A DNA stretch of 64,000 nucleotides, taken from Pelagibacteraceae bacterium (GTDB lineage Bacteria; Pseudomonadota; Alphaproteobacteria; Methylaequorales; Methylaequoraceae). The stretch lies in NCBI GenBank assembly GCA_042090305.1, contig JBELJQ010000002.1, forward strand, positions 1,970 through 65,969. The letters are read 5' to 3'. The translations under genes and the position numbers were made by a program. Shown one piece after another: positions 49,102 through 61,936 of the stretch (positions are counted from its first letter, which is position 1; each line of letters begins with the position of its first letter). The notes below the pieces were generated by a model that saw only the letters and a program-made list of their open reading frames with translations, did not search any database and was not told the DNA's origin.

Positions 49102-49117
49102 TGGTTTGGAATTTGCA
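49102..49117 (+). promoter_or_regulatory. Possible sigma-54 promoter for the divergent 369-aa gene
   Basis: The + strand reads TGGTTTGGAATTTGCA. GG-N10-GC spacing is exact and the -12 TTGCA is perfect. The -24 element deviates (TGGTTT). It shares the palindrome ATTTGCAAAT with the flgB promoter. The predicted +1 is near 49128, with a GAAAGG SD before the ATG at 49149. Confidence 0.45.
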
Positions 49118-49129
49118 AATTGAATGCCA
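49113..49129 (-). promoter_or_regulatory. Sigma-54 (-24/-12) promoter of the flgBCDEF operon
   Basis: Reverse strand reads TGGCATTCAATTTGCAA, versus consensus TGGCACG-N4-TTGCW. GG and GC have the exact spacing. The predicted +1 is near 49103, 18 nt before the flgB ATG. Confidence 0.75.
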
Positions 49130-50637: not shown

Positions 50638-51063
50638 TTAACGTTTACCATGAAATTTTATAATTGGTTCAACTTCTTCGGTAGATAAGTTAGTTGCTTC
50701 AGAAATTTCTGAAATATTTTTTCCCTGATTAGCCATTTGAATGGCCATCGTAATTTTTGATTCACCGCTTGATGAATCCGCTAAACGTGCAATCTCTAAA
50801 TCAATCTTTTCTAATGTATACTTATAATCTTCAATAACTTTCTTCTGGTCTGTAAATAAAAGTTCTAGTCTTCTAAACTCTTCAATGAGATCTTTGATTG
50901 CCCTTTCAAGCATATAAACTTTCTTCGCGTTATCTTTATTCTTTTTATTATCCAGATAATACCCTAATGCAATAATGGATAACATAAATAAAGATATAAG
51001 AGTCAAGAGCAAAATAAAGTTATTTGATGATTCATTAGAAAAAAGATTATTAATAAAGTTCAT
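50638..51063 (-). CDS. Membrane-anchored coiled-coil protein with C-terminal HTH-like segment (DUF2802-like?)
   Basis: N-terminal TM helix, coiled-coil middle, C-terminus ITMAIQMANQGKNISEISEATNLSTEEVEPIIKF. This resembles the DUF2802 proteins of gamma-proteobacterial flagellar/chemotaxis clusters. Assignment is from memory only. Confidence 0.35.
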   Translation of the reverse strand: MNFINNLFSNESSNNFILLLTLISLFMLSIIALGYYLDNKKNKDNAKKVYMLERAIKDLIEEFRRLELLFTDQKKVIEDYKYTLEKIDLEIARLADSSSGESKITMAIQMANQGKNISEISEATNLSTEEVEPIIKFHGKR

Positions 51064-51094
51064 AAAACAATGATATTATTATAGTGAAACAATC

Positions 51095-51379
51095 TCAACT
51101 TGTATTAATTTTTCTATCTTTAAGGAATTTAACGAAGTCAGTTAAAATTTGGCTTTGAGATTTCTGTTTTGAGACAAGTATAGACAAAGTCTTTTCCAAC
51201 TCATTGATTTTTTCTTTAAGGTCAGTCTCTTGATTATTATTTTCTGAGCTTGCTAAAAGTTCTGTGATTAGCTTCGACTCTGTTATTATTTCTTCTTCTA
51301 TTTTAAGTATTTCAGTATTATTTTTTGCATCTATAAGACTTTTTAGAAGAGACACAACATAATCAATTTTTTTTTTCAT
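51095..51379 (-). CDS. Possible FlgN-like export chaperone
   Basis: 94 aa, all-helical, Leu/Glu/Lys-rich. It lies directly downstream of flgM, as in the flgA-flgM-flgN operons. The call is by position only. Confidence 0.35.
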   Translation of the reverse strand: MKKKIDYVVSLLKSLIDAKNNTEILKIEEEIITESKLITELLASSENNNQETDLKEKINELEKTLSILVSKQKSQSQILTDFVKFLKDRKINTS

Positions 51380-51395
51380 TGATATGTGAGGTCTA

Positions 51396-51707
51396 CTATT
51401 TCATTTCTTTATATGCATCAAACAAAGCATCTGTGAGTTTATCTAAGTCAATAGGATAATCACCATTAGCAATAGCTGCTTTAATTCTAGATGTTGTTTG
51501 TTTGTCAATTGGTGGTTCCTTAGCCATATCCTTTACTCTCTCTTTGGAAATGAACTGCGAAACTTTCCCAAAATTACTATCAATTCCAGCTTTTGAATGA
51601 TCAACTTTAGAAACTTCGCTACTTTTCTTGTTAGCTGAGGGTTCGCTAGATACTTTAGTATCTTTAAACGTCGAACTTAAGTTTTTTATGTTAATCTTAT
51701 CAATCAT
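51396..51707 (-). CDS. flgM: Anti-sigma-28 factor FlgM
   Basis: 103 aa, disordered Ser/Lys-rich N-half. C-terminus IDKQTTSRIKAAIANGDYPIDLDKLTDALF matches the FlgM sigma-28-binding region. Follows flgA. Confidence 0.8.
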   Translation of the reverse strand: MIDKINIKNLSSTFKDTKVSSEPSANKKSSEVSKVDHSKAGIDSNFGKVSQFISKERVKDMAKEPPIDKQTTSRIKAAIANGDYPIDLDKLTDALFDAYKEMK

Positions 51708-51728
51708 TTTTTATATTCCTTTTAATTA

Positions 51729-51755
51729 TTAACGACAATAACCTAAAATTGTTTA
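51729..51755 (-). promoter_or_regulatory. Candidate sigma-28 (FliA) promoter for flgM
   Basis: Reverse strand reads TAAA-N15-GTCGTTAA, versus consensus TAAA-N15-GCCGATAA (6/8 in the -10). It overlaps the flgA stop and lies ~20 nt upstream of the flgM SD and ATG. Confidence 0.5.
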
Positions 51756-52438
51756 GCATGCATTATAACTTTTTTTTCATTTTTTGCATAAACTCGCAAA
51801 ATTTTTCCACTTTTAACATTCTTAACTGTTAGTTTATCCATAAAATTTGCATTTTCAAGCGCAATACCTGATTCTTTTATAGTTATACTAGATTTATTGT
51901 TGACTATTGTGACAATTGAATTTTTTTCAATCAGCCAATCTTGTTCAACATCATTAAATTGGATTGCGATATTCTTATTCATATTTCTTTTTAGTTTTTT
52001 ACCCAAGATCTCTGATTTATTTGTAATAAAAGCACTGTTATTACTTTTTTTACTTAATTCTATTAGATTTTCTTCTTTTATTACTGTTCCACTCCTTAGG
52101 TTTTCTTTTAATGCAAATGTTTTTAATACGCTGTAACTTCTAACTTTTTGTTTAATATTTTTTTTATTTCTTACTATAAATTGCCAAGGATTTTTCCCTA
52201 TACATTTTACTTTTATAAGTTTAAATTCTCCTGAAATATCATTGATAATTAAGTCTGAATATTTACAAAATGGATATTTTAATTCTTCTAAAATTTCAAT
52301 ATTTGAAGTTTGACCTTTATTATCTAACCAAGTTTCAATAGCTACTTGTAAGTCTTTTCCATTAACAGTTTTAGATAAACATGGAGTAAAACTCAGTGAT
52401 ACTAAAAAAAATATTATATTTCTAACTCTTTTTTTCAT
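51743..52438 (-). CDS. flgA: Flagellar P-ring assembly chaperone FlgA
   Basis: Signal peptide, SAF-like segment LKENLRSGTVIKEENL. C-terminus LTVKNVKSGKILRVYAKNEKKV is typical of FlgA. Confidence 0.75.
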   Translation of the reverse strand: MKKRVRNIIFFLVSLSFTPCLSKTVNGKDLQVAIETWLDNKGQTSNIEILEELKYPFCKYSDLIINDISGEFKLIKVKCIGKNPWQFIVRNKKNIKQKVRSYSVLKTFALKENLRSGTVIKEENLIELSKKSNNSAFITNKSEILGKKLKRNMNKNIAIQFNDVEQDWLIEKNSIVTIVNNKSSITIKESGIALENANFMDKLTVKNVKSGKILRVYAKNEKKVIMHAKQF

Positions 52439-52440
52439 AT

Positions 52441-52869
52441 TTATGGGTTAAAAAAGTATATATGTTGACTGTTTGTATTAGATGAATGGTCAATATTTTT
52501 AATGTTTTTTATGAGGTTCATTATTTGATTTAATGAAGGGATAGTTAAACTTTTTCCAGCAAACATATAATTCGGGTTGTTTCTAACAAATGCATGTTTA
52601 TTCATTTCTAGTACTGAAACTTCTATCATTCTCATATTTAAACCACTATTACCGTAATATTTTTTTAAAATATCACTTAAAGATTCTCCTTTTTTTATCT
52701 TATGTTTGACGTGATGACTTGGATTTTTTACAAAATCATTGTTTTTATTTGGAGATGTGCCCTTAGAATAATTTCCTTTGTAATCAAGAACAACAAATGG
52801 TTCCTGAGAGAATGAAAAGGTGGATATTAATAGTGTTATAAATAAAATTTTAATTTGAATAATTCTCAT
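52441..52869 (-). CDS. Secreted small protein with FimV-type LysM peptidoglycan-binding motif
   Basis: Signal peptide, then HKIKKGESLSDILKKYYGNSGLNMRMIEVSVLEMNKHAFVRNNPNYMFAGKSLTIPS. This resembles the FimV/HubP N-terminal LysM (..GDTL..IA......Q....L...NP.AF...N.N.L..G..L.IP). Confidence 0.55.
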   Translation of the reverse strand: MRIIQIKILFITLLISTFSFSQEPFVVLDYKGNYSKGTSPNKNNDFVKNPSHHVKHKIKKGESLSDILKKYYGNSGLNMRMIEVSVLEMNKHAFVRNNPNYMFAGKSLTIPSLNQIMNLIKNIKNIDHSSNTNSQHIYFFNP

Positions 52870-52878
52870 ATAACTTTC

Positions 52879-54060
52879 CTAGTTAATAAATTTTATAAAT
52901 TTACCTTCAATAAATTCGTTTTTATTATTTGGGTTTAAGGGTTCAATCTCAGAAAAATCTTCATTTATGTTTTTAACTGTAACAACAATCCAATCATTCA
53001 TACTGACATCCATTCCATTTGGGGAAATTATACCAAGCTTATCTTTACTAAGACCTTGATTACTTCCTAATGAAACAATTAGCTTGTTGTTGATTTTTTT
53101 TACAACCGCTTCAAGTGGACGACATTTTAGCTGATCCATAACTCTGTACTGAACTTTTGATAAACTTTTTTCAACTAATACTCTTATTTTATCGTATGAC
53201 TTTTTGTAAAAGGCGTCAATATGCTGATATCCAGTTTTTTGTCCTAAAAATAAAGAAAAGTCATATTCTAAACTATCTATGAGATTAAAATTACTATTTT
53301 GATAAACGTCCAGTCTAAGTTTTATTAATATCTCTTTTGAGAATCTACCAATATTTCCGTCAATACTGTCTATGATTACAGTTGGATGAACAGCAAATTC
53401 ACCATCTTTTAGAGACATAGATTTTCCTTCCACAATACTGTCGTAGTCTAAGTCTGAAGATTTGATTGGTATTTTCTTTACATTAAAAAAAACATTTGAT
53501 TTATCTCTTAACCTTATAAAATCAATATTTCTTAAATTTTTTCTAATATTTTCTGAAATAACATTTGGAAGTTTATGAGTCCATGGTTCAAGCTTACTTG
53601 AAACTGTAAAGTGAGGAGAAAGAAATGACAAATTTACAAAATTTCTATCAGAGCAATCAGAAGATGTATTTATATTTATTAGATATGCCTTAATTTTTAT
53701 TACATAATGACTTTTATCCTCTTTTTCATCCAATATCACAAAATCAGTAATGGTAGACGCTGGTCTAACTAAAAGGTTTTCGCTTAATCTAGTTAAATTG
53801 TCTACATTAGAATATCCGTCAATTTTCGCACCACCTCTTAAACTTGCAAGATATAATGCATCATCAAGAGCTCTTTTTTTTGCAATTTCCTTATTACCAT
53901 CACTTATAACAGCTCTTCCTTCTGTAATAATTTCTTTTAGACCAAAACTATCAGCCAAAGCATATGTGGAAATAAGCAAAAGAAATAATACACTTAAAAA
54001 AAATGAAACTAGTTCTCTTAAAACTACATCAAATAAGCTATATTCAACTTTTCTAAACAT
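52879..54060 (-). CDS. FlgT-like periplasmic flagellar protein (tentative)
   Basis: 393 aa, N-terminal signal/anchor. EGRAVISDGNKEIAKKRALDDALYLASLRGGAKIDGYSNV resembles an FlgT_N/LPP20-type fold. Size and position next to flgP match Vibrio flgT (~380 aa). Confidence 0.4.
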   Translation of the reverse strand: MFRKVEYSLFDVVLRELVSFFLSVLFLLLISTYALADSFGLKEIITEGRAVISDGNKEIAKKRALDDALYLASLRGGAKIDGYSNVDNLTRLSENLLVRPASTITDFVILDEKEDKSHYVIKIKAYLININTSSDCSDRNFVNLSFLSPHFTVSSKLEPWTHKLPNVISENIRKNLRNIDFIRLRDKSNVFFNVKKIPIKSSDLDYDSIVEGKSMSLKDGEFAVHPTVIIDSIDGNIGRFSKEILIKLRLDVYQNSNFNLIDSLEYDFSLFLGQKTGYQHIDAFYKKSYDKIRVLVEKSLSKVQYRVMDQLKCRPLEAVVKKINNKLIVSLGSNQGLSKDKLGIISPNGMDVSMNDWIVVTVKNINEDFSEIEPLNPNNKNEFIEGKFIKFIN

Positions 54061-54063
54061 ATT

Positions 54064-54570
54064 CTATAAAGTTTGGGCAGACCTAAATAAATAGGCAACC
54101 ATGTCTTGGTCTATTTCTAAAACAGTTTCATAAGTGTCTTGACCAGTTGGATTTATTCTTACTGTTCTCGCGCCTCTGATAACTCCGGATACTACACCTC
54201 TAAAAGTGTCATTTTGAACCATTAAATCAATAACAGTTGTATTACTGTCTACTTTTAATCCATGAATTTGTTCAGCTAAATCTCTCATTGCCGACATTCT
54301 CGCAGCTCTTATAGCCATCAATCTTTTCTGTTCAATACTCTGGCCTGGTTGACTAGATACCACTGCATAACCCGTTGCAGTGAGTGTCGGAAAATTAATA
54401 GATGCACCATCAAGTAACTCTCTTGTTTTGTTTAACTGATCAGTAGGGGTTGAATAATCCTGACTATTAGCTAACTTTTGATTATTGTTTGGTAATCCTA
54501 TATTATCTAATAAGTTTGTCGAACATGATTGCACCAAAATTGCAATAATAAATAAATATATGTACTTCAT
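54064..54570 (-). CDS. FlgP-like LPP20-family flagellar lipoprotein
   Basis: Lipobox-like ILVQSCS. LPP20 core TATGYAVVSSQPGQSIEQKRLMAIRAARMSAMRDLAEQIHGLKVDSNTTV. Confidence 0.6.
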   Translation of the reverse strand: MKYIYLFIIAILVQSCSTNLLDNIGLPNNNQKLANSQDYSTPTDQLNKTRELLDGASINFPTLTATGYAVVSSQPGQSIEQKRLMAIRAARMSAMRDLAEQIHGLKVDSNTTVIDLMVQNDTFRGVVSGVIRGARTVRINPTGQDTYETVLEIDQDMVAYLFRSAQTL

Positions 54571-54602
54571 TTTTTATCCTCAAATGTTGTTTTTGGTAAT
54601 TT

Positions 54603-54619
54603 GTGCATAAATTATGCCA
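54603..54619 (-). promoter_or_regulatory. Sigma-54 promoter of the flgP-flgT-LysM-flgA(-flgM...) operon
   Basis: Reverse strand reads TGGCATAATTTATGCAC. GG/GC spacing is exact; the -12 is ATGCA. The predicted +1 is near 54593, 23 nt before the ATG at 54570. Confidence 0.65.
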
Positions 54620-54656
54620 AGAAGATAATTATCAGAAAACTCTCCATAGTAGATAA

Positions 54657-54673
54657 TGGCATAGCCCTTGCAT
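54657..54673 (+). promoter_or_regulatory. Sigma-54 promoter of the flhA-flhF-flhG-fliA operon
   Basis: The + strand reads TGGCATAGCCCTTGCAT, a near-perfect match to TGGCACG-N4-TTGCW. The predicted +1 is near 54683, 88 nt before the flhA ATG. Confidence 0.75.
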
Positions 54674-54770
54674 CTTATATGTTAATGAATTTTATTTTTA
54701 AAATAATAGGGATTTCTGGGATTTTTAACAGTCAATTTTTTGACTATAAAAATCTTATTAAAGGATAATT

Positions 54771-56918
54771 ATGGATTTAGTACTAAAAACATTCCGATCA
54801 CAAAACTTAATAAGTTTTCTAAGAACATTCAGTATTCCTATCGGAATAATGGTCTTAGTTGCAATGATGGTAATTCCACTAAATCCTTGGATGTTAGATA
54901 TCTTATTCACAACAAATATTCTTGTTTCACTATTAGTACTTATGGTGGCTCTGCAGACCTTTAGACCATTAGATTTTTCAAGTTTTCCTACTGTACTTTT
55001 ATTTGCCACAGTTTTGAGACTTGGATTAAATGTAGCATCGACCCGTGTAATTCTAAAATCTGGGCATAATGGAACTGACTCAGCAGGAAGTATTATCGAG
55101 GCATTTGGAGAATTTGTAATGTCAGGAAGTTATGCTGTGGGACTTTTTGTATTCTCAATTTTAGTAATAATAAATTTAATTGTAATAACTAAGGGAGCAG
55201 GAAGAGTTTCAGAGGTCGCAGCACGGTTTACCCTTGACGCTATGCCAGGAAAGCAAATGGCAATAGATGCTGACTTAAATGCTGGAGTAATTACAAGTGA
55301 AGAAGCAAAAGAAAGAAGAAGTGAAATTGCTAAGGAAGGAGAATTTTACGGAGCAATGGATGGTGCAGCAAAATTTGTTAAGGGTGATGCTGTTGCAGGT
55401 ATTCTAATTTTAGTAATAAACATAATTGGTGGTTTGATAATAGGGACAACACAGCATGATTTAACTCTTAATCAGTCGGCTGAGTCATATATTTTATTAA
55501 CAGTAGGTGATGGTCTTGTTGCTCAGATACCTTCTTTACTTTTAGCGATGGCAACGGCAACCATCGTTACAAGAATCTCGTCCGACAATGATGATCTAGC
55601 CGGTCAAATTTCAAATCAGATGGGTTTGTCAAAAGCATGGACGCCTGTTTCAGCAGTATTACTAGTATTTGGACTTGTTCCAGGAATGCCAAATACCCTT
55701 TTCATAGCTGGATCAATAATTGCTGGAACAATAGCATGGATTACCTCTAAAAAAACAAAAAAAGAGAGCGATGAAGAATTGAATAATAATGATACTGAAG
55801 ATTCTGATTCAATTGGACAAATTGATATCGAAGACGTATCAGATAATGCATCAATTTCTCTTGATTTAGGTTATGGCTTAATTTCAATGGTTGATTCAAG
55901 TGATAAAAAGTCTGCAGGACCTCTTATTTCTAAAATCACGGGTATAAGAAAACAGGTATCAAAAGATCTAGGCTTTGTTATTCCTAATGTCAGAGTAAAG
56001 GATGACCTCACATTAGAAGCTAATTCTTACAGAATAAGGATTGGTCATACAATAGTTGCGCAGGATAAAGTTTATGTCGATAGAAAATTAGCAATGCCAA
56101 GTGATGAAACTCAATTAAAAATTCAAGGTATTCAAGTAAAAGACCCAACTTTTGGTTTAGATTCTTTTTGGATAGAGCAGCATTTAGTATCAAAGGCTGA
56201 AGCAAATCATTATATGATAATTGAGCCAGAGGCAGTGATTGCAACTCATCTTAATCATATTTTACTTAGATTTTCAGGAGAGTTGATAAGTCAAGATGAT
56301 GTTCAGTCTTTAGTAGATAATCTTGGCAAAACTAATCCTCAATTGATTCAGTCAGTTATACCAAAGCTAGTTCCTTTACATCACTTAACAATAATTCTTA
56401 GGAATCTTTTATCTGAGCGAGTTCCAATAAATGATTTAAAAAAAATATTAGAAGCATTAACGAATTTATCAGAGAAAAAACTTAGTCCAGAAGAGTTGTC
56501 AGAAGCAGTAAGACCAGCAATCTCATCACTTCTTATCCAAAAAATATCAAATATAAATGAAGCATTGGATGTTGTTACATTTAATCCTGAATTTGAGCAA
56601 ATGCTGATTTCAATGTCTAAAAAAAGTGGTTCAGATGGAATTCTTATTGATCCTCAATTAGCTAAACAAATGATAAGCTCTTTAATTGAGGTTGGTGAAA
56701 AATTTTCAATGGATGGCAATCCTCTTGTTATTGTTACAGCGCCAGTCATTAGAAAAGATATAGCTGTATTGTTAAGACAGCATATTGAAGATCTCGTGGT
56801 TTTATCATTTACAGAACTACCTGAAAATAAAAGAGTAAAAGTTGTCTCAACTATCGGAGAAAAAATCATTAATAATAATACACAAAAGGAGAAATCTAAT
56901 GAAAACGCAACTGTTTAA
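54771..56918 (+). CDS. flhA: Flagellar type III export gate protein FlhA
   Basis: 715 aa. FHIPEP-family motifs (RFTLDAMPGKQMAIDADL, GAMDGAAKFVKGDA, LLTVGDGLVAQIPSLL) plus a cytoplasmic C-domain. Confidence 0.95.
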   Translation: MDLVLKTFRSQNLISFLRTFSIPIGIMVLVAMMVIPLNPWMLDILFTTNILVSLLVLMVALQTFRPLDFSSFPTVLLFATVLRLGLNVASTRVILKSGHNGTDSAGSIIEAFGEFVMSGSYAVGLFVFSILVIINLIVITKGAGRVSEVAARFTLDAMPGKQMAIDADLNAGVITSEEAKERRSEIAKEGEFYGAMDGAAKFVKGDAVAGILILVINIIGGLIIGTTQHDLTLNQSAESYILLTVGDGLVAQIPSLLLAMATATIVTRISSDNDDLAGQISNQMGLSKAWTPVSAVLLVFGLVPGMPNTLFIAGSIIAGTIAWITSKKTKKESDEELNNNDTEDSDSIGQIDIEDVSDNASISLDLGYGLISMVDSSDKKSAGPLISKITGIRKQVSKDLGFVIPNVRVKDDLTLEANSYRIRIGHTIVAQDKVYVDRKLAMPSDETQLKIQGIQVKDPTFGLDSFWIEQHLVSKAEANHYMIIEPEAVIATHLNHILLRFSGELISQDDVQSLVDNLGKTNPQLIQSVIPKLVPLHHLTIILRNLLSERVPINDLKKILEALTNLSEKKLSPEELSEAVRPAISSLLIQKISNINEALDVVTFNPEFEQMLISMSKKSGSDGILIDPQLAKQMISSLIEVGEKFSMDGNPLVIVTAPVIRKDIAVLLRQHIEDLVVLSFTELPENKRVKVVSTIGEKIINNNTQKEKSNENATV

Positions 56919-58023
56919 AGCTAAAGATATGAAGTCTGCTATAAACCTTGTAAACGATCAATTTGGCGAAAAGGCTATAATTTTATCTACTAGGAAAAAT
57001 AATGGTCTTGTTGAGGTGGAAGCTTCTGATACCGAGGATGTAATTCAAAAACATAAAGAGAAAATCAAAGATAAGGAAAGTTTCTCAAAAGTTTTTATGA
57101 AAGAAATTAAGGAAAAGAATGATAATGTTTCATTTTTTGATACAGAAAATAAGACAAAGTACGAAAGTAGTCAAAAACTTGAAGTTTATGATGAAATTAA
57201 GCAACAAATTTATTCTTTAAGGGATGATTTAAGTAGAATGGTTTTAACTGACCAGTCAGGAATTTCTGATGAACTCTCTCACTTAACACCTATTAAACTT
57301 CGACAAGAAAAGTTTTTACCAGAAGTCATTAATAAATTTAGTCATTCATTTATTGGAAAAAATAGTGAAGATGGCAGGATTGCTTTTTTCAGAGAATTAT
57401 CTAGAAAACTTGCATCTAACGATTTTTCTAGAATGTTAAATTCCAATAATATATTTATTTTTGGAAACTCTGGGTCTGGAAAATCTACATTATCTGCTAA
57501 AATTGCTTCATTTCTATCGGATAAAAGGTCAACAAAAGAAATAAACTTTATTGATGTTTCTAATTCAGGAACTTCACACAGTGATATTCTTAGATCATAT
57601 AGTAGGGTTCTAAGCTTTCCCGTAAAAGATTATAAATATTTTGATTTCAATCAAAATCAAAATGATCGCTCAAAAATTAATATTTTTGATTTTTCAGGAG
57701 ATCTTAATTTTAGTTTGCAAAAAATTAATGAGATAAAAAATTCATTTCCGTCTTTTGATTTTTGTTCTATATTAGCTATACCAAGTGGTTCTAATTCTGA
57801 AATGATAAAAGGAATGTGCGAGAGAGTTTCAGATGTAAGACCAATGGTTGCTATCACAAAGCTTGATGAATGCTGGGTGGGAGCTGAAGAATTTTCTTCA
57901 CTTGCATTAAATAATGCAAGAATAGGCTTAGTTACTGGTACAAAAGTATTGATTAACTCAGTAATCGAAGCTAATGAGAATTCTCTAACGAAATATATGA
58001 AAGAGAACTTAAAAGGTGTCTGA
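56899..58023 (+). CDS. flhF: Flagellar placement SRP-type GTPase FlhF (divergent G motifs)
   Basis: From the ATG at 56899 (AGGAG SD): MKTQLFKAKDMKSAINLVNDQFGEKAIILS is a typical FlhF B-domain start. G1 is GNSGSGKST, G3 is DFSG, G4 is TKLDE. Follows flhA. Confidence 0.8.
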   Translation: MKTQLFKAKDMKSAINLVNDQFGEKAIILSTRKNNGLVEVEASDTEDVIQKHKEKIKDKESFSKVFMKEIKEKNDNVSFFDTENKTKYESSQKLEVYDEIKQQIYSLRDDLSRMVLTDQSGISDELSHLTPIKLRQEKFLPEVINKFSHSFIGKNSEDGRIAFFRELSRKLASNDFSRMLNSNNIFIFGNSGSGKSTLSAKIASFLSDKRSTKEINFIDVSNSGTSHSDILRSYSRVLSFPVKDYKYFDFNQNQNDRSKINIFDFSGDLNFSLQKINEIKNSFPSFDFCSILAIPSGSNSEMIKGMCERVSDVRPMVAITKLDECWVGAEEFSSLALNNARIGLVTGTKVLINSVIEANENSLTKYMKENLKGV

Positions 58024-58810
58024 TTCGGTTGCAATTACTAGTGGAAAAGGTGGGGTAGGCAAAACAACTTTTGCTGTCAACTTATCCATAGCTTTTAAAA
58101 AAATCTCTGATGAGGTTTTCTTATTAGATACTGATCTAGGTATGGCTAACTCTCATGTTCTTCTTGGAGACAACCCTAACTATACTATAGCTGATGTAAT
58201 TTCAGGTAATAAAAAAGTTTCTGAAATCATTTATAAAAATAAATATGGAATAAATCTTATATCTGGAGGAACTGCCTCAAACAATGTTCTTAACATAGAA
58301 AATAAGGCCAGATATTCCATATTAAATGGAATTGAAAATCATTTAATGAAATACAATAGTCTTAAACTTATTGTGGATATAGCTGCAGGAGCTGATGATA
58401 ATTCACTTATTTTCTCTATGGCATGCGATAGGATCGTGATAGTTATTGTTGGCGAGCCTACTAGTTTTATTGATTCATATGCTCTTATAAAAGCTTTATA
58501 TGCAAAATCATCCTTTAAAAACTATTGCATTGCCGTCAATCAAGTTGATGATGAGGCAAATGGAGTGGAATTATTCAAAAAATTTCAAGCAATTACATCT
58601 AAGTTTTTAGATGTTAATCTTCATTATGTAGGTTCTGTTAAAAGCTCAAGAAAGATTTCAAGATCTATTGTAGATAGAAAACCAATAACGGTCAGCGATC
58701 CTAAATCTGATATATCTCTAAATTTTTTTAAAATAGCAAAGAAGGTTACAGAGACACCTGTTAACGAATGGGGGGGCTTAACTTTTCTTTCACAAAAAAA
58801 AAGAGCGTAA
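58016..58810 (+). CDS. flhG: MinD/ParA-type ATPase FlhG (FleN)
   Basis: Deviant Walker A SGKGGVGKTT at residues 9-18. Sits between flhF and fliA. GTG start overlaps the flhF stop. Confidence 0.85.
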   Translation: MSDSVAITSGKGGVGKTTFAVNLSIAFKKISDEVFLLDTDLGMANSHVLLGDNPNYTIADVISGNKKVSEIIYKNKYGINLISGGTASNNVLNIENKARYSILNGIENHLMKYNSLKLIVDIAAGADDNSLIFSMACDRIVIVIVGEPTSFIDSYALIKALYAKSSFKNYCIAVNQVDDEANGVELFKKFQAITSKFLDVNLHYVGSVKSSRKISRSIVDRKPITVSDPKSDISLNFFKIAKKVTETPVNEWGGLTFLSQKKRA

Positions 58811-58819
58811 AATATCAGT

Positions 58820-59521
58820 ATGAATAATTTATATTCTCAAAATTCAGATACTATAGTCAATGATCTAATTGAAAAAAACCTCGATTTGGTAAAAAAAATT
58901 GCATGGCAAATTCATGGAAGAGTTAATAATGTAATTGAAATTGAGGATCTGGTTCAACAAGGTATGGAAGGTCTTGTGCATGCTGCTCAAAAATATTCTC
59001 AAAGAGAAAATATAACTTTCCCTCAATATGCCCAATTAAGAATAAGAGGAAGTATAATTGATTTTTTAAGAAAAAATTCAAATCTTTGTAGGACTACAAT
59101 AAAGAAAAAACAAGACTTTGAAAGAAAAAGAAATAATCTACAACAGGAATTGGGAAGAGAACCAACTCAAGATGAAATAGTCAATTATTTAGGTATTTCA
59201 TTTGATGAGTATGATTACTGGAAAAAATCATTTGAGGCAAATAATATTCAAAGTTTAGACAATGCGTATAATGAGTATTCCTTGTTATATGCTTCCCATG
59301 AAGAAAGTCCAGAAAAGAAATTAGAGAATAAAGAGTTAAAGGAACAAATTAAAAGTGCATTAAAAGTTTTAAATCAAAGAGAGGCATTAATTGCACAACT
59401 TTATTATGTTGAGGAATTAAACATATACGAGATTTCAGATGTTCTTGAAATAAGTACTGGAAGAATATCTCAAATAAAAAAGAAGATTGTTGAAAAATTA
59501 AGATATGAAATCATCAAATAA
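58820..59521 (+). CDS. fliA: Flagellar sigma factor FliA (sigma-28)
   Basis: Region 2 DLVQQGMEGLVHAAQKY...YAQLRIRGSIIDFLR. Region 4 LNIYEISDVLEISTGRISQIKKKIVEKLR. 233 aa. Confidence 0.92.
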   Translation: MNNLYSQNSDTIVNDLIEKNLDLVKKIAWQIHGRVNNVIEIEDLVQQGMEGLVHAAQKYSQRENITFPQYAQLRIRGSIIDFLRKNSNLCRTTIKKKQDFERKRNNLQQELGREPTQDEIVNYLGISFDEYDYWKKSFEANNIQSLDNAYNEYSLLYASHEESPEKKLENKELKEQIKSALKVLNQREALIAQLYYVEELNIYEISDVLEISTGRISQIKKKIVEKLRYEIIK

Positions 59522-59906
59522 TTGGAAAAGCCTGAATAATGTTGTTTTAAGAGTTGATAATGTAGAAGCAATCTACACTAAAAAAACAGAAATAATTCTA
59601 AATTGTGGTTTCGAAAATATTTCTAAAGGAAGATGCAACTTGAGAGTGAGTGTAAATAATAAAAATAAAAAAAACAACTTATATGTTTTTACTGATAAGG
59701 CATTGATGGAGGTTGAGTTATACTATAGTAAATCTGAAATTGATGAAATTTTGAAACTTATTTTTCTTAAGAAATCTTCAAAAAAATCTATTATTATTCT
59801 AAATATTTCTGATAATTTATTAATAAATGAAAATAACTACTTATATATAAAAAACAATATAACTATCGCTATAAACTCAATCGATTGGAAAATTCCTTTA
59901 TCTTAA
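59505..59906 (+). CDS. Hypothetical protein (133 aa) translationally coupled to fliA
   Basis: ORF overlaps the fliA 3' end by 17 nt. Asn/Lys/Ile-rich, no signal peptide, no motif I recognise. Confidence 0.45.
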   Translation: MKSSNNWKSLNNVVLRVDNVEAIYTKKTEIILNCGFENISKGRCNLRVSVNNKNKKNNLYVFTDKALMEVELYYSKSEIDEILKLIFLKKSSKKSIIILNISDNLLINENNYLYIKNNITIAINSIDWKIPLS

Positions 59907-59907
59907 T

Positions 59908-60693
59908 TTACCTGGATGAAAACTTTTTTGTTATTTCTACTTCTGACTGAAGAATTTTTGAACATCCATTAAATGCACGTTGTGTCCTCAACATTAAAAC
60001 AATTTCATCAGTAATGTCTGTATTAGATCTCTCAAGAAATCCAGGCTCAATCTTTCCGATTGTCCCTTCCTTTGGTCTTCCAAACTCAGGTAAACCACTT
60101 TCACCAGTTCTTTTAAACCTTGCATTACCTATATTTTGAAGTCCGTGTTCATTTACAAAGTCAGCAAGCTCAAGCTGCCCTACATTTTCAGTATTATCTA
60201 GTCCATAAGTTGCTAAAATAGAACCATCAGATTTTACAGAAATCTCAGAGAGTAATTGCTGACCAGCCCCTTCGAAAGGTATGTTTATGGGTTGCTGACC
60301 TTCACCTAGTAGCGGTAGTCCATCAGTATTAACAAGGTTACCTGTTCTATCTAATTGAAATGAACCATCTCTTGTAAAAACTGGTTCATCAGTTGATGTT
60401 TCTCTCCCAATTGGTGTTCCCAGAGCAAAAAAACCTTCGCCCATGATTGCTAAATCTAAACTACCATTAGTTTGTTGAAGTGAGCCTTGTGAAAAGTTTT
60501 GTCTTGGCTTAATTGTCCTAACTCCAATACCATTTGCTTTTTCTGTAGAATCATTGTGAATTGACCTGTACATATCCTCAAACTGAGCTTCACTTTTTTT
60601 GAATCCGTTTGTACCGGCATTAGCAATATTATTTGAAATTACTGATAAATCTCTATTAGATGCATCTAGACCAGTTCTAATTATATTAAACAT
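59908..60693 (-). CDS. flgG: Flagellar rod/hook-family protein, FlgG-like (261 aa)
   Basis: From the ATG at 60693: MFNIIRTGLDASNRDLSVISNNIANAGTNGFKKSEAQFED. C-terminus LERSNTDITDEIVLMLRTQRAFNGCSKIL. GEGFFAL and FTRDGSF motifs. The 350-aa track ORF is extended artefactually through the antisense of tRNA-Val. Confidence 0.75.
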   Translation of the reverse strand: MFNIIRTGLDASNRDLSVISNNIANAGTNGFKKSEAQFEDMYRSIHNDSTEKANGIGVRTIKPRQNFSQGSLQQTNGSLDLAIMGEGFFALGTPIGRETSTDEPVFTRDGSFQLDRTGNLVNTDGLPLLGEGQQPINIPFEGAGQQLLSEISVKSDGSILATYGLDNTENVGQLELADFVNEHGLQNIGNARFKRTGESGLPEFGRPKEGTIGKIEPGFLERSNTDITDEIVLMLRTQRAFNGCSKILQSEVEITKKFSSR

Positions 60694-60704
60694 GAAGCAT
60701 GAAC

Positions 60705-60720
60705 AGCAATTATTATGCCA
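60705..60720 (-). promoter_or_regulatory. Sigma-54 promoter of the flgG-like gene
   Basis: Reverse strand reads TGGCATAATAATTGCT, with exact GG-N10-GC spacing and a TTGCT -12. The C of the GC is only 13 nt upstream of the ATG. Confidence 0.65.
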
Positions 60721-60768
60721 TTTTTTATTGTTGAGATTCTTTTTTAAATGTATATTGGGATTGTTATC

Positions 60769-60844
60769 GGGCGGATAGCTCAGCTGGGAGAGCAATTGCT
60801 CGACACGCAATAGGTCGCAGGTTCGAACCCTGTTCCGCCCACCA
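60769..60844 (+). tRNA. tRNA-Val (anticodon GAC), CCA encoded, with C at position 33
   Basis: Hand-folded. Acceptor GGGCGGA/TCCGCCC, D arm GCTC-AGCTGGGA-GAGC, anticodon stem ATTGC/GCAAT with loop TCGACAC, T arm GCAGG-TTCGAAC-CCTGT, A73, CCA. Confidence 0.85.
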
Positions 60845-60856
60845 ACATATTGAAAA

Positions 60857-61936
60857 ATGAAAAGAAGAAAATTTTTAGATAAATCAATTAAAGGCGTTTT
60901 AGCGGGTGGTGCCTCAACAATGTTTATTCCTAATATTGTTAAAGCCAAAAAAAAGCACACATGGGTTGCAGTATCAGCATTTGATAAAGCTGGAATACTT
61001 GGAAGAGCTTTTCAAAAACTTTGTGAAGAGATTACTAGAATATCATCAGGGGAGTTAAATATCAGATTATTCCATGCAAATGAGTTGGTAAGTGCTTTTG
61101 AATCTTTTGATGTTGTTCAAAGTGGTACCTGTCAAATGGGTTTTGGGTCACCTTATTATTGGGCAGGAAAGTCAAAGGCAATTTCATTCTTGTCTGGTAT
61201 ACCTTTTGGAATGAATTATCAGGAGATGAGCGCTTGGTTTTATAAAGGTGATGGTATCAAGTTAGCTGATTCTATTTACAACCAGTTTAATCTAAAATTC
61301 TTTCCAGCTGGTAATACTGGAAATCAAATGGGTGGATGGTTCAATAAAGAAATAAACATAACCAGTGATTTTAAGGGTTTAAAATTTAGAATGCCTGGTT
61401 TAGGCGGTGAAGTATTAAAGAGCTTTGGAACAAATGTAGTTTTATTGCCAGGTCCAGACGTGGTTCCAGCGATTTCATCAGGAACTATTGACGGAACTGA
61501 GTGGATTGGGCCTGCAGCAGATTTAGGTAAGGGACTTCATAAAGTTTGCAAATATTACTATTATCCTGGGTGGCATGAACCAGGAACATGTTTAGAAGCA
61601 TTTATAAATTTAAAATATTGGAATAAACTTGATAATAATTTAAAAAAACTTGTTAGTACATGTTGCGCTAAGTCTAACTCATCCATTGCTGCTGAGTTTT
61701 TTATAAGGAATAGTTTTGCTATTAAGAAGCTTAAAGATGATTATAACGTCAACTTTAAAAAATACCCTAAAGATTTATTAATAAAATTAAAAAAGCAATC
61801 AGATGAAATAACCCAGAACTTAGCATCCCAAGATCCTAAGGGAACTCAAATATTAGATAATATATTAAAACATCGTGAGATTTTTATGTTTTGGTCAAAT
61901 TACTCTGAGAAAAGTTTTTTAGAGTCCAGACTATAA
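60857..61936 (+). CDS. TRAP transporter substrate-binding protein (DctP family, Tat signal)
   Basis: Twin-arginine signal MKRRKFLDKSIKGVLAGGAS. DctP-family body (COG4663-like). Adjacent to the dctQM genes. Confidence 0.85.
   Translation: MKRRKFLDKSIKGVLAGGASTMFIPNIVKAKKKHTWVAVSAFDKAGILGRAFQKLCEEITRISSGELNIRLFHANELVSAFESFDVVQSGTCQMGFGSPYYWAGKSKAISFLSGIPFGMNYQEMSAWFYKGDGIKLADSIYNQFNLKFFPAGNTGNQMGGWFNKEINITSDFKGLKFRMPGLGGEVLKSFGTNVVLLPGPDVVPAISSGTIDGTEWIGPAADLGKGLHKVCKYYYYPGWHEPGTCLEAFINLKYWNKLDNNLKKLVSTCCAKSNSSIAAEFFIRNSFAIKKLKDDYNVNFKKYPKDLLIKLKKQSDEITQNLASQDPKGTQILDNILKHREIFMFWSNYSEKSFLESRL

Follow-up and report, generated by a model that had tools for sequence, protein, structure and literature searches.

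The flgP-flhA locus

The window analysed here, a stretch of 64,000 nucleotides, belongs to contig C26 of a genome of 1.53 Mb with a GC content of 29.7%, which is 88% complete and about 94% covered by open reading frames (ORFs). Within it, two flagellar operons diverge from a gap of 200 bp, with the ATG of flgP at 54570 on the minus strand and that of flhA at 54771 (Table 1). The genes of the minus-strand operon were recognised from Pfam matches to LPP20 (flgP-like), FlgT_N, ChapFlgA, FlgM and DUF2802, together with an NCBIfam match to FimV_core for the LysM/FimV-like gene. Those of the plus-strand operon match FHIPEP, ParA/MinD-type families and Sigma70 r2, r3 and r4, and flhF was called from its NCBIfam match to FlhF. 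This gene content places sigma-28 (fliA) in the plus-strand operon and the anti-sigma factor (flgM) in the minus-strand operon. The gap itself holds two divergent elements that read as sigma-54 promoters, referred to below as PflgP and PflhA, and a short palindrome in the flhA leader.

Table 1. Features of the flgP-flhA region and of the two flagellar activator genes. Plain numbers are positions in the window; positions prefixed G000 lie on other contigs of the same genome, and signed positions refer to the fleT-like promoter.
Feature	Position	Strand	Sequence or content	Basis or conservation
Minus-strand operon	50638..54570	-	flgP-like lipoprotein, flgT-like, LysM/FimV-like, flgA, flgM, orf94, DUF2802 gene	ORF list and domain matches
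flgP mRNA 5' end	54593..54594	-	observed 54594, predicted +1 54593	
PflgP, predicted sigma-54 promoter	54603..54619	-	TGGCATAATTTATGCAC; GG 54618-54617, GC 54606-54605	direct reading and exact pattern match
Spacer between the two -24 elements	54620..54656	.	37 bp	sequence unconserved
PflhA, predicted sigma-54 promoter	54657..54673	+	TGGCATAGCCCTTGCAT; GC 54670-54671; predicted +1 54683	direct reading and pattern match
Putative FleQ-type enhancer box	54731..54744	.	GTCAATTTTTTGAC, GTCA-N6-TGAC, A/T-rich centre	half-sites invariant in 21 genomes
Plus-strand operon	54771..59906	+	flhA, flhF, flhG, fliA, orf133 (133 aa)	ORF list and domain matches
FleT-like activator gene	G000:C10:16386-17540		384 aa; Sigma54_activat and AAA_lid domains, without HTH	
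FleQ-like activator gene	G000:C10:17728-18798		356 aa; AAA+ domain right at the start, HTH at the end, without N-terminal domain	
fleT-like sigma-54 element			TTGGyAA-N4-TTCTTGCTT, GG-N10-GC	kept in 14 genomes
IHF-like site at fleT-like promoter	about -73		WATCAA-N4-TTR	14 genomes
Box at fleT-like promoter	-116 to -130		TTGTCA-N6-TGACA	14 genomes

Two divergent sigma-54 elements and their conservation

Direct reading confirmed the positions of both elements as given in a first-pass annotation of the window, including the 37 bp that separate them. Both carry the GG-N10-GC spacing and fit the consensus TGGCAC-N5-TTGCW; the -12 motif of PflgP reads ATGCA in place of TTGCA, and the purine at that position is kept in the relatives. 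The two GG dinucleotides lie 41 bp apart, about four helical turns, an arrangement in which two sigma-54 holoenzymes may be able to sit back to back. With -12 assigned to the C of the GC pair, transcription is predicted to start at 54593 for flgP and at 54683 for flhA. The distances of 23 and 88 nt to the two start codons that had been assigned to the motifs are correct as leader lengths counted from these predicted starts, but not as distances from the motif ends.

To these data we added the flgP-flhA intergenic regions of 20 relatives from the same family, whose FlhA proteins are 74-90% identical to that of the window, giving a comparison set of 21 genomes from 14 genera. Both sigma-54 elements are present in 21/21 genomes, PflgP as TGGCAy-(A/T)5-rTGCA and PflhA with TGGCA and TTGCAT invariant on either side of an N5 spacer that varies. 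The DNA between the -24 elements, which measures 28-38 bp in the relatives, has no conserved columns. Only three invariant islands emerge from the intergenic alignment, namely the minus-strand element, the plus-strand element and the GTCA-N6-TGAC palindrome in the flhA leader; the comparison among relatives that had been suggested as a check thus shows both promoter elements unchanged in all genomes while the surrounding DNA drifts.

The closest named FlhA record comes from a single-cell genome labelled 'uncultured Alphaproteobacteria bacterium'. Outside the family, FlhA identity is 57% in a 'Rhodobiaceae' MAG and then about 45% in gammaproteobacteria. This MAG, with a GC content of 60%, has divergent sigma-54 motifs upstream of flhA as well, 72 bp apart and adjoining genes of flgP and flgT size.

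A sigma-54 regulon of flagellar and nitrogen genes

The exact pattern TGGCAYNNNNNWTGCW (TGGCAY-N5-WTGCW) occurs four times in the window, against 0.18 matches expected and with none of 100 shuffles reaching that number, and 14 times in the 1.53-Mb genome, where mononucleotide shuffles give an expectation of 2.4 +/- 1.4 and a maximum of 5. Once over-extended ORF starts had been corrected, 11 of the 14 genomic matches were found to be correctly oriented and no more than about 100 nt ahead of a gene start. For two others, the distance to the gene downstream is longer, 242 nt for glnD and 370 nt for glnA, and the last has no ORF of at least 80 aa downstream. The motif is therefore rare and nearly confined to promoter positions, which is the outcome that the genome-wide scan proposed in the first-pass annotation needed to yield if the elements are promoters. 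The two further window sites named there, at flgB (49114-49129, minus strand) and at a flgF/G-like gene (60705-60720, minus strand), also exist.

The accompanying claim that such sites are unlikely to arise by chance stands for the exact pattern, which is enriched in both the window and the genome, but not for the form with one mismatch, of which the window has 4 examples against 3.0 expected, a difference that is not significant. This near-expected count is what a reading of the motifs as chance matches in AT-rich DNA would predict. That reading is effectively refuted by the enrichment of the exact pattern together with the invariance of the elements over 14 genera; the location of the sites just upstream of gene starts, the presence of divergent motifs in the 60%-GC relative and an RNA 5' end at the predicted flgP position, described below, count against it as well.

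Nine of the 14 genomic matches stand ahead of flagellar or flagellum-linked genes. The genes downstream of matches comprise flgG, fliK, flgB, a flgF-like gene, flhA, flgP, a gene for an SLT transglycosylase, glnA, glnD and, on contig C24, a FliS-like gene and three neighbours, two of which encode proteins of TPR-repeat appearance. Relaxed forms of the pattern add amt, encoding an ammonium transporter, and the fleT-like gene, whose -24 element is TGGCAA. Collectively, the sigma-54 matches form a coherent regulon that unites flagellar with nitrogen genes.

Three of these sites have features of their own. The four motifs on contig C24 are clustered (G000:C24:3059-11046), ahead of the FliS-like gene and three larger genes, and this segment may represent a sigma-54-controlled island for flagellin modification. 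At G000:C21:15184-15240, a palindrome (TTGACATCTGTCAA) follows a perfect sigma-54 motif (TGGCATGTTATTTGC), and the 2.8 kb downstream of the motif contain no ORF of at least 80 aa; the motif may be the promoter of a small gene or of a small RNA. Lastly, the flgF/G-like motif of the window falls within the longest GTG-started ORF (59908-60960). Family matches to this ORF begin only at residue 90, which places the true start about 88 codons downstream and gives a protein of about 260 aa.

RpoN and its activators

The genome encodes rpoN (PF04552 match, 205 bits, in a 491-aa open frame; G000:C27:14824-15303), and this is the single match in an 88%-complete genome. It also carries four strong sigma-54 activator genes, identified by PF00158 matches. 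Two of them are ntrC and ntrX, which lie in a dusB-ntrB-ntrC-ntrY-ntrX-trkA block typical of alphaproteobacteria. The remaining two form a divergent pair within the fli cluster on contig C10, and the GAFTGA loop is visible in both. Hence, the sigma factor and the enhancer-binding proteins whose presence had been named as a check on the promoter prediction are both found, the latter as a FleQ-like and a FleT-like activator.

The gene of the FleT-like activator heads an operon that continues with fliE, fliF, fliG, a gene in the position of fliH, fliI and a gene in the position of fliJ, the last two being assigned by size and position only. The first 117 residues of the FleT-like protein have no Pfam or NCBIfam match; the FleT of Rhodobacter sphaeroides has been described as being without an N-terminal domain. 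For the FleQ-like activator, the best PDB match is Pseudomonas aeruginosa FleQ (8p53_C, residues 148-483, E = 6e-86), over the AAA+ and DNA-binding domains, and its recognition helix (RTTLIEKMKKY) is near-identical to that of P. aeruginosa FleQ (RTTLVEKMRKY).

A FleQ-type box in the flhA leader

The third invariant island, GTCA-N6-TGAC, equals the published FleQ consensus, which is GTCaNTAAAtTGAC in P. aeruginosa and GTCAaAAAAtTGAC in P. putida and was derived from promoters that include flhA (PMC6120874). Genome-wide there are only seven such boxes, four of them intergenic. A box is also present between the FleT-like and FleQ-like genes (G000:C10:17500-17760), in 14/14 genomes. At the fleT-like promoter, the enhancer, an IHF-like site and the sigma-54 element follow one another in the canonical, textbook order, with a difference of about one helical turn between the two shorter spacings. 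Given this order, the box is very probably the DNA site of the activator.

The same intergenic box precedes the ATG of the fleQ-like gene by 16-55 nt, and that gene may thus be autoregulated. Further exact boxes were seen at G000:C27:16320-16333 (GTCAGAAAAATGAC), in front of both rpoN (75 nt from its start) and a divergent gene of 195 aa (99 nt), and at G000:C10:7203-7216 (GTCAAACTTATGAC), in the 114-bp gap between fliN and fliO. No second box or shared dyad was found near the other 11 sigma-54 promoters, flagellar ones included, and the activator can evidently work at such flagellar promoters without this site or through another.

The first-pass annotation had reasoned that, with so little room between the promoters, any enhancer-binding site would have to lie inside the opposite transcription unit. 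The sole other conserved element does indeed sit in the flhA leader. In the window, this element is centred at +54.5 with respect to the predicted flhA start and at -144.5 with respect to the flgP start. Relative to the predicted flhA start, the centre falls between +52.5 and +55.5 in 15 genomes, at +74.5 in one and between +83.5 and +84.5 in five, and relative to the flgP start it ranges from -142.5 to -174.5. The leader indels behind these differences measure about 21 and about 30 bp and keep the helical phase, with a phase concentration of R = 0.89 toward PflhA and R = 0.78 toward PflgP, values that depend on only two independent indel events. The 21-genome alignment has no conserved IHF-like site between the box and either PflgP or PflhA.

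A box with this placement might serve one promoter only, even if both promoters are real. It would then be either an upstream enhancer for PflgP, at -144, or a downstream site for PflhA, and the other promoter would be activated from solution or through an unrecognised site inside flgP. We consider such a division somewhat unlikely. It is in keeping with the other flagellar sigma-54 promoters that have no box, with the fleT promoter, which uses its box solely from -128, and with a weak box-like sequence (one mismatch) about 230-250 nt inside flgP in 8/21 genomes, which could be a second site. Similarly, the divergent flhA and flgA promoters in R. sphaeroides reportedly depend, each for the most part, on a downstream site of their own. 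However, the candidate inside flgP is missing from the window, the intergenic region has a single conserved island besides the promoters, and the helical phase of that island is held toward both of them.

The inverted repeat had initially been described as a perfect small hairpin at 54730-54745. The sequence is present (AGTCAATTTTTTGACT), but it is better read as a DNA site: conservation is limited to the 4+4 core, and the pairs show no covariation. An RNA hairpin in the 5' UTRs of flhA and the fleQ-like gene, controlling mRNA stability or translation, would agree with the position of the repeat in both leaders (13-26 nt before the flhA ATG), with RNA contigs that begin 11-19 nt upstream of it and with folding energies of -3 to -7.5 kcal/mol. 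Nevertheless, we regard this explanation as very improbable: the stem is weak, with only 4 bp conserved and the flanking pairs lost, and it never covaries; the distance to the fleQ-like ATG is as variable as noted above; the sequence is that of a known protein-binding consensus; and at the fleT promoter the repeat stands at an enhancer distance that is fixed and phase-locked, with an IHF-like site in between.

Transcript evidence from metatranscriptomes

Logan contigs from 13 seawater metatranscriptome runs were matched to the window; the RNA evidence throughout consists of assembled contigs of low depth without strand information. Both flgP and flhA are transcribed, and the core of the intergenic region, 54595-54717, is uncovered in all 13 runs. 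In four DNA metagenomes (4.8-24.5x), single contigs cross this region, which rules out faulty assembly as the source of the gap in the RNA.

On the flgP side, contigs stop at 54572-54594, and none of the 13 runs passes 54594. Fold-back junctions are traces left by self-primed cDNA at the 5' end of an RNA. One fold-back contig, from run X7, has its junction at 54594, and a relative from another genus (G013) has junctions at 497 and 496 in two samples, where 496 is the predicted position. These junctions suggest, but do not prove, that the flgP mRNA begins at the predicted start in two genera.

As regards the transcription starts, whose mapping had been called for, the RNA contigs fit the flgP prediction, while the flhA start is left unconfirmed, with contigs that begin 29-39 nt downstream of it. 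Four RNA contigs on the flhA side start only at 54718-54722, 35-39 nt past the predicted 54683, and in a relative of the same genus (L118), where the prediction is 1113, flhA contigs start at 1142 and 1150, an offset of 29 and 37 nt. In both species these contigs begin at or near GGG, 11-19 nt upstream of the box. The late starts could reflect poor coverage of the leader, whose first 35 nt are 86% A+T, 5' processing of the transcript or an unknown promoter.

The last of these possibilities would mean that the plus-strand motif is not a working flhA promoter. The mRNA would begin near 54718 from an unrecognised promoter, and TGGCAT-N5-TTGCAT would have another role, for example as a sigma-54 site modulating PflgP. 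Besides the four contigs and the equivalent starts in the same-genus relative, 54683-54717 is covered in 0/13 metatranscriptome runs, and searching public RNA runs for words of the flhA leader brought up no RNA run that contains it, only two runs of unknown type that behave like DNA. We nonetheless find a start near 54718 improbable. No sigma-70-like hexamers fit it, and the segment upstream is unconserved in the 21-genome alignment, in which the sigma-54 element is invariant. In Pseudomonas, flhA depends on sigma-54 and FleQ. Moreover, the flhA contigs are only 3-10x deep over an A+T-rich leader, and 5' processing would be expected to give the same picture. We keep 54683 as the predicted flhA start.

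Additional observations were made on transcript levels and on one relative. In L118, an exact RNA contig from run X5 (747-1084, G003:C6) extends across the predicted flgP promoter and ends 3 nt short of the flhA -24 element. In this species, flgP transcription may have a start further upstream, or the contig may come from an antisense RNA; the window species gave no comparable contig. In the relatives L118 and L133, flgP contigs are several-fold deeper than those of flhA (10-120x and 0-10x, respectively); in the window species, the flgP side (54350-54600) and the flhA side (54720-54950) are similar in depth.

Comparison with known flagellar control systems

A close parallel in layout is with the Fla1 flagellum of Rhodobacter (Cereibacter) sphaeroides. 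Work by Poggio from 2005 reportedly set out a Fla1 hierarchy with RpoN2, FleQ and FleT, and work by Pena-Sanchez from 2009 is said to describe a divergent pair of sigma-54 promoters, flhAp and flgAp, with a separation of about 53 bp and activator sites downstream of both. Those sites reportedly lie about 200 bp downstream of their promoters, in contrast to the single box at +54 here. In the Fla1 cascade, class III promoters are activated by a hetero-oligomer of FleQ and FleT. The laterally acquired Fla1 flagellum, with its FleQ/FleT layout and its FlgP and FlgT proteins, has been documented in several reports (PMC7277832, PMC10084136, PMC11999139). As here, an alphaproteobacterium carries a gamma-type flagellum with FlgP and FlgT, an HTH-less FleT is encoded by the first gene of a fliEFGHIJ operon beside a DNA-binding FleQ, and fliA and flgM both belong to the sigma-54 class. 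Despite these analogies, the divergent partner of flhA here is an operon that starts with flgP-flgT and has flgA later on; there is one rpoN rather than four, and no dedicated flagellar RpoN paralogue; and the FleT-like protein keeps its 117-residue N-terminal region. In addition, Rhodobacter FlhA is not among the best 80 relatives of the window FlhA by protein similarity.

In Pseudomonas, flhA is transcribed by sigma-54 with FleQ (PMC6120874), and FleQ sites may sit downstream of the promoter, in the leader, as indicated by the title of Jyot 2002, by PMC6120874 and by a P. putida preprint. The locus described here shares with the class II FleQ promoters of Pseudomonas (flhA, fliE, fliL and fleSR) the combination of sigma-54 element and FleQ-type box, and it shares the operon order flhA-flhF-fleN(flhG)-fliA. 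It differs in that the activator is without the N-terminal REC-like domain, its alignment starting at FleQ residue 148; in that a FleT-like partner is found instead of a FleSR-type two-component pair; and in that flhA has a divergent neighbour, a second sigma-54 operon at a distance of only 37 bp.

The canonical NtrC-type architecture is matched by the fleT-like promoter, with its box, IHF-like site and GG-N10-GC element. In the terms of that architecture, PflgP sees the box at -144, and PflhA sees the same box from downstream; unlike the canonical case, neither has a conserved IHF-like site between box and promoter. Caulobacter crescentus also has divergent flagellar sigma-54 promoters with shared activator sites, some of them downstream of the start, recognised through the FlbD/ftr system. 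There, the activator FlbD has a receiver domain and acts at the ftr site on an alpha-type flagellar gene set, whereas the present locus has a different member of the activator family, a different site sequence and a gamma-type gene set. The parts and the logic of the locus are already known from Pseudomonas and Rhodobacter, and no new mechanism is revealed; what makes the locus of interest is its lineage and the very compact single-enhancer geometry.

A proposed shared enhancer for two flagellar operons

Our preferred reading, to which we assign a probability of about 0.6, is that PflgP and PflhA, as a back-to-back pair of sigma-54 promoters, both depend on FleQ and share one enhancer, which would make the flgP-flhA gap a compact two-way flagellar control region. 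In this model, PflgP would drive flgP-flgT-lysM-flgA-flgM and two further genes, and PflhA would drive flhA-flhF-flhG-fliA. A FleQ-like enhancer-binding protein with AAA+ and HTH domains would bind the single palindrome in the flhA leader and open both promoters, and the FleT-like partner, which has no HTH, may act together with it. From its position, downstream of PflhA as at the Pseudomonas flhA promoter and at a classical enhancer distance from PflgP, one enhancer could serve both. The export gate, FlhF/FlhG and sigma-28 would in this way be co-regulated with outer-ring proteins, FlgA and the anti-sigma factor FlgM.

More tentatively, and with less confidence than in the shared enhancer itself, the phase-locked box might be a two-way enhancer that needs no IHF site and reaches PflgP across a second bound holoenzyme, so that one activator hexamer would time or balance the expression of fliA against that of flgM.

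Our findings provide a testable map of flagellar regulation in abundant, uncultured and streamlined marine alphaproteobacteria. The map takes in the sigma-54 regulon, the truncated FleQ with its FleT-like partner, and the single conserved putative enhancer that lies between the two operons. With a geometry that is fixed and preserves phase, the locus offers a clean natural case of one enhancer-bound activator facing two sigma-54 promoters, one of which would be served from downstream. If the model is correct, a two-way enhancer occurs in marine alphaproteobacteria that combine a very small genome with a gamma-type flagellum, and the shared enhancer would couple the expression of fliA and flgM.
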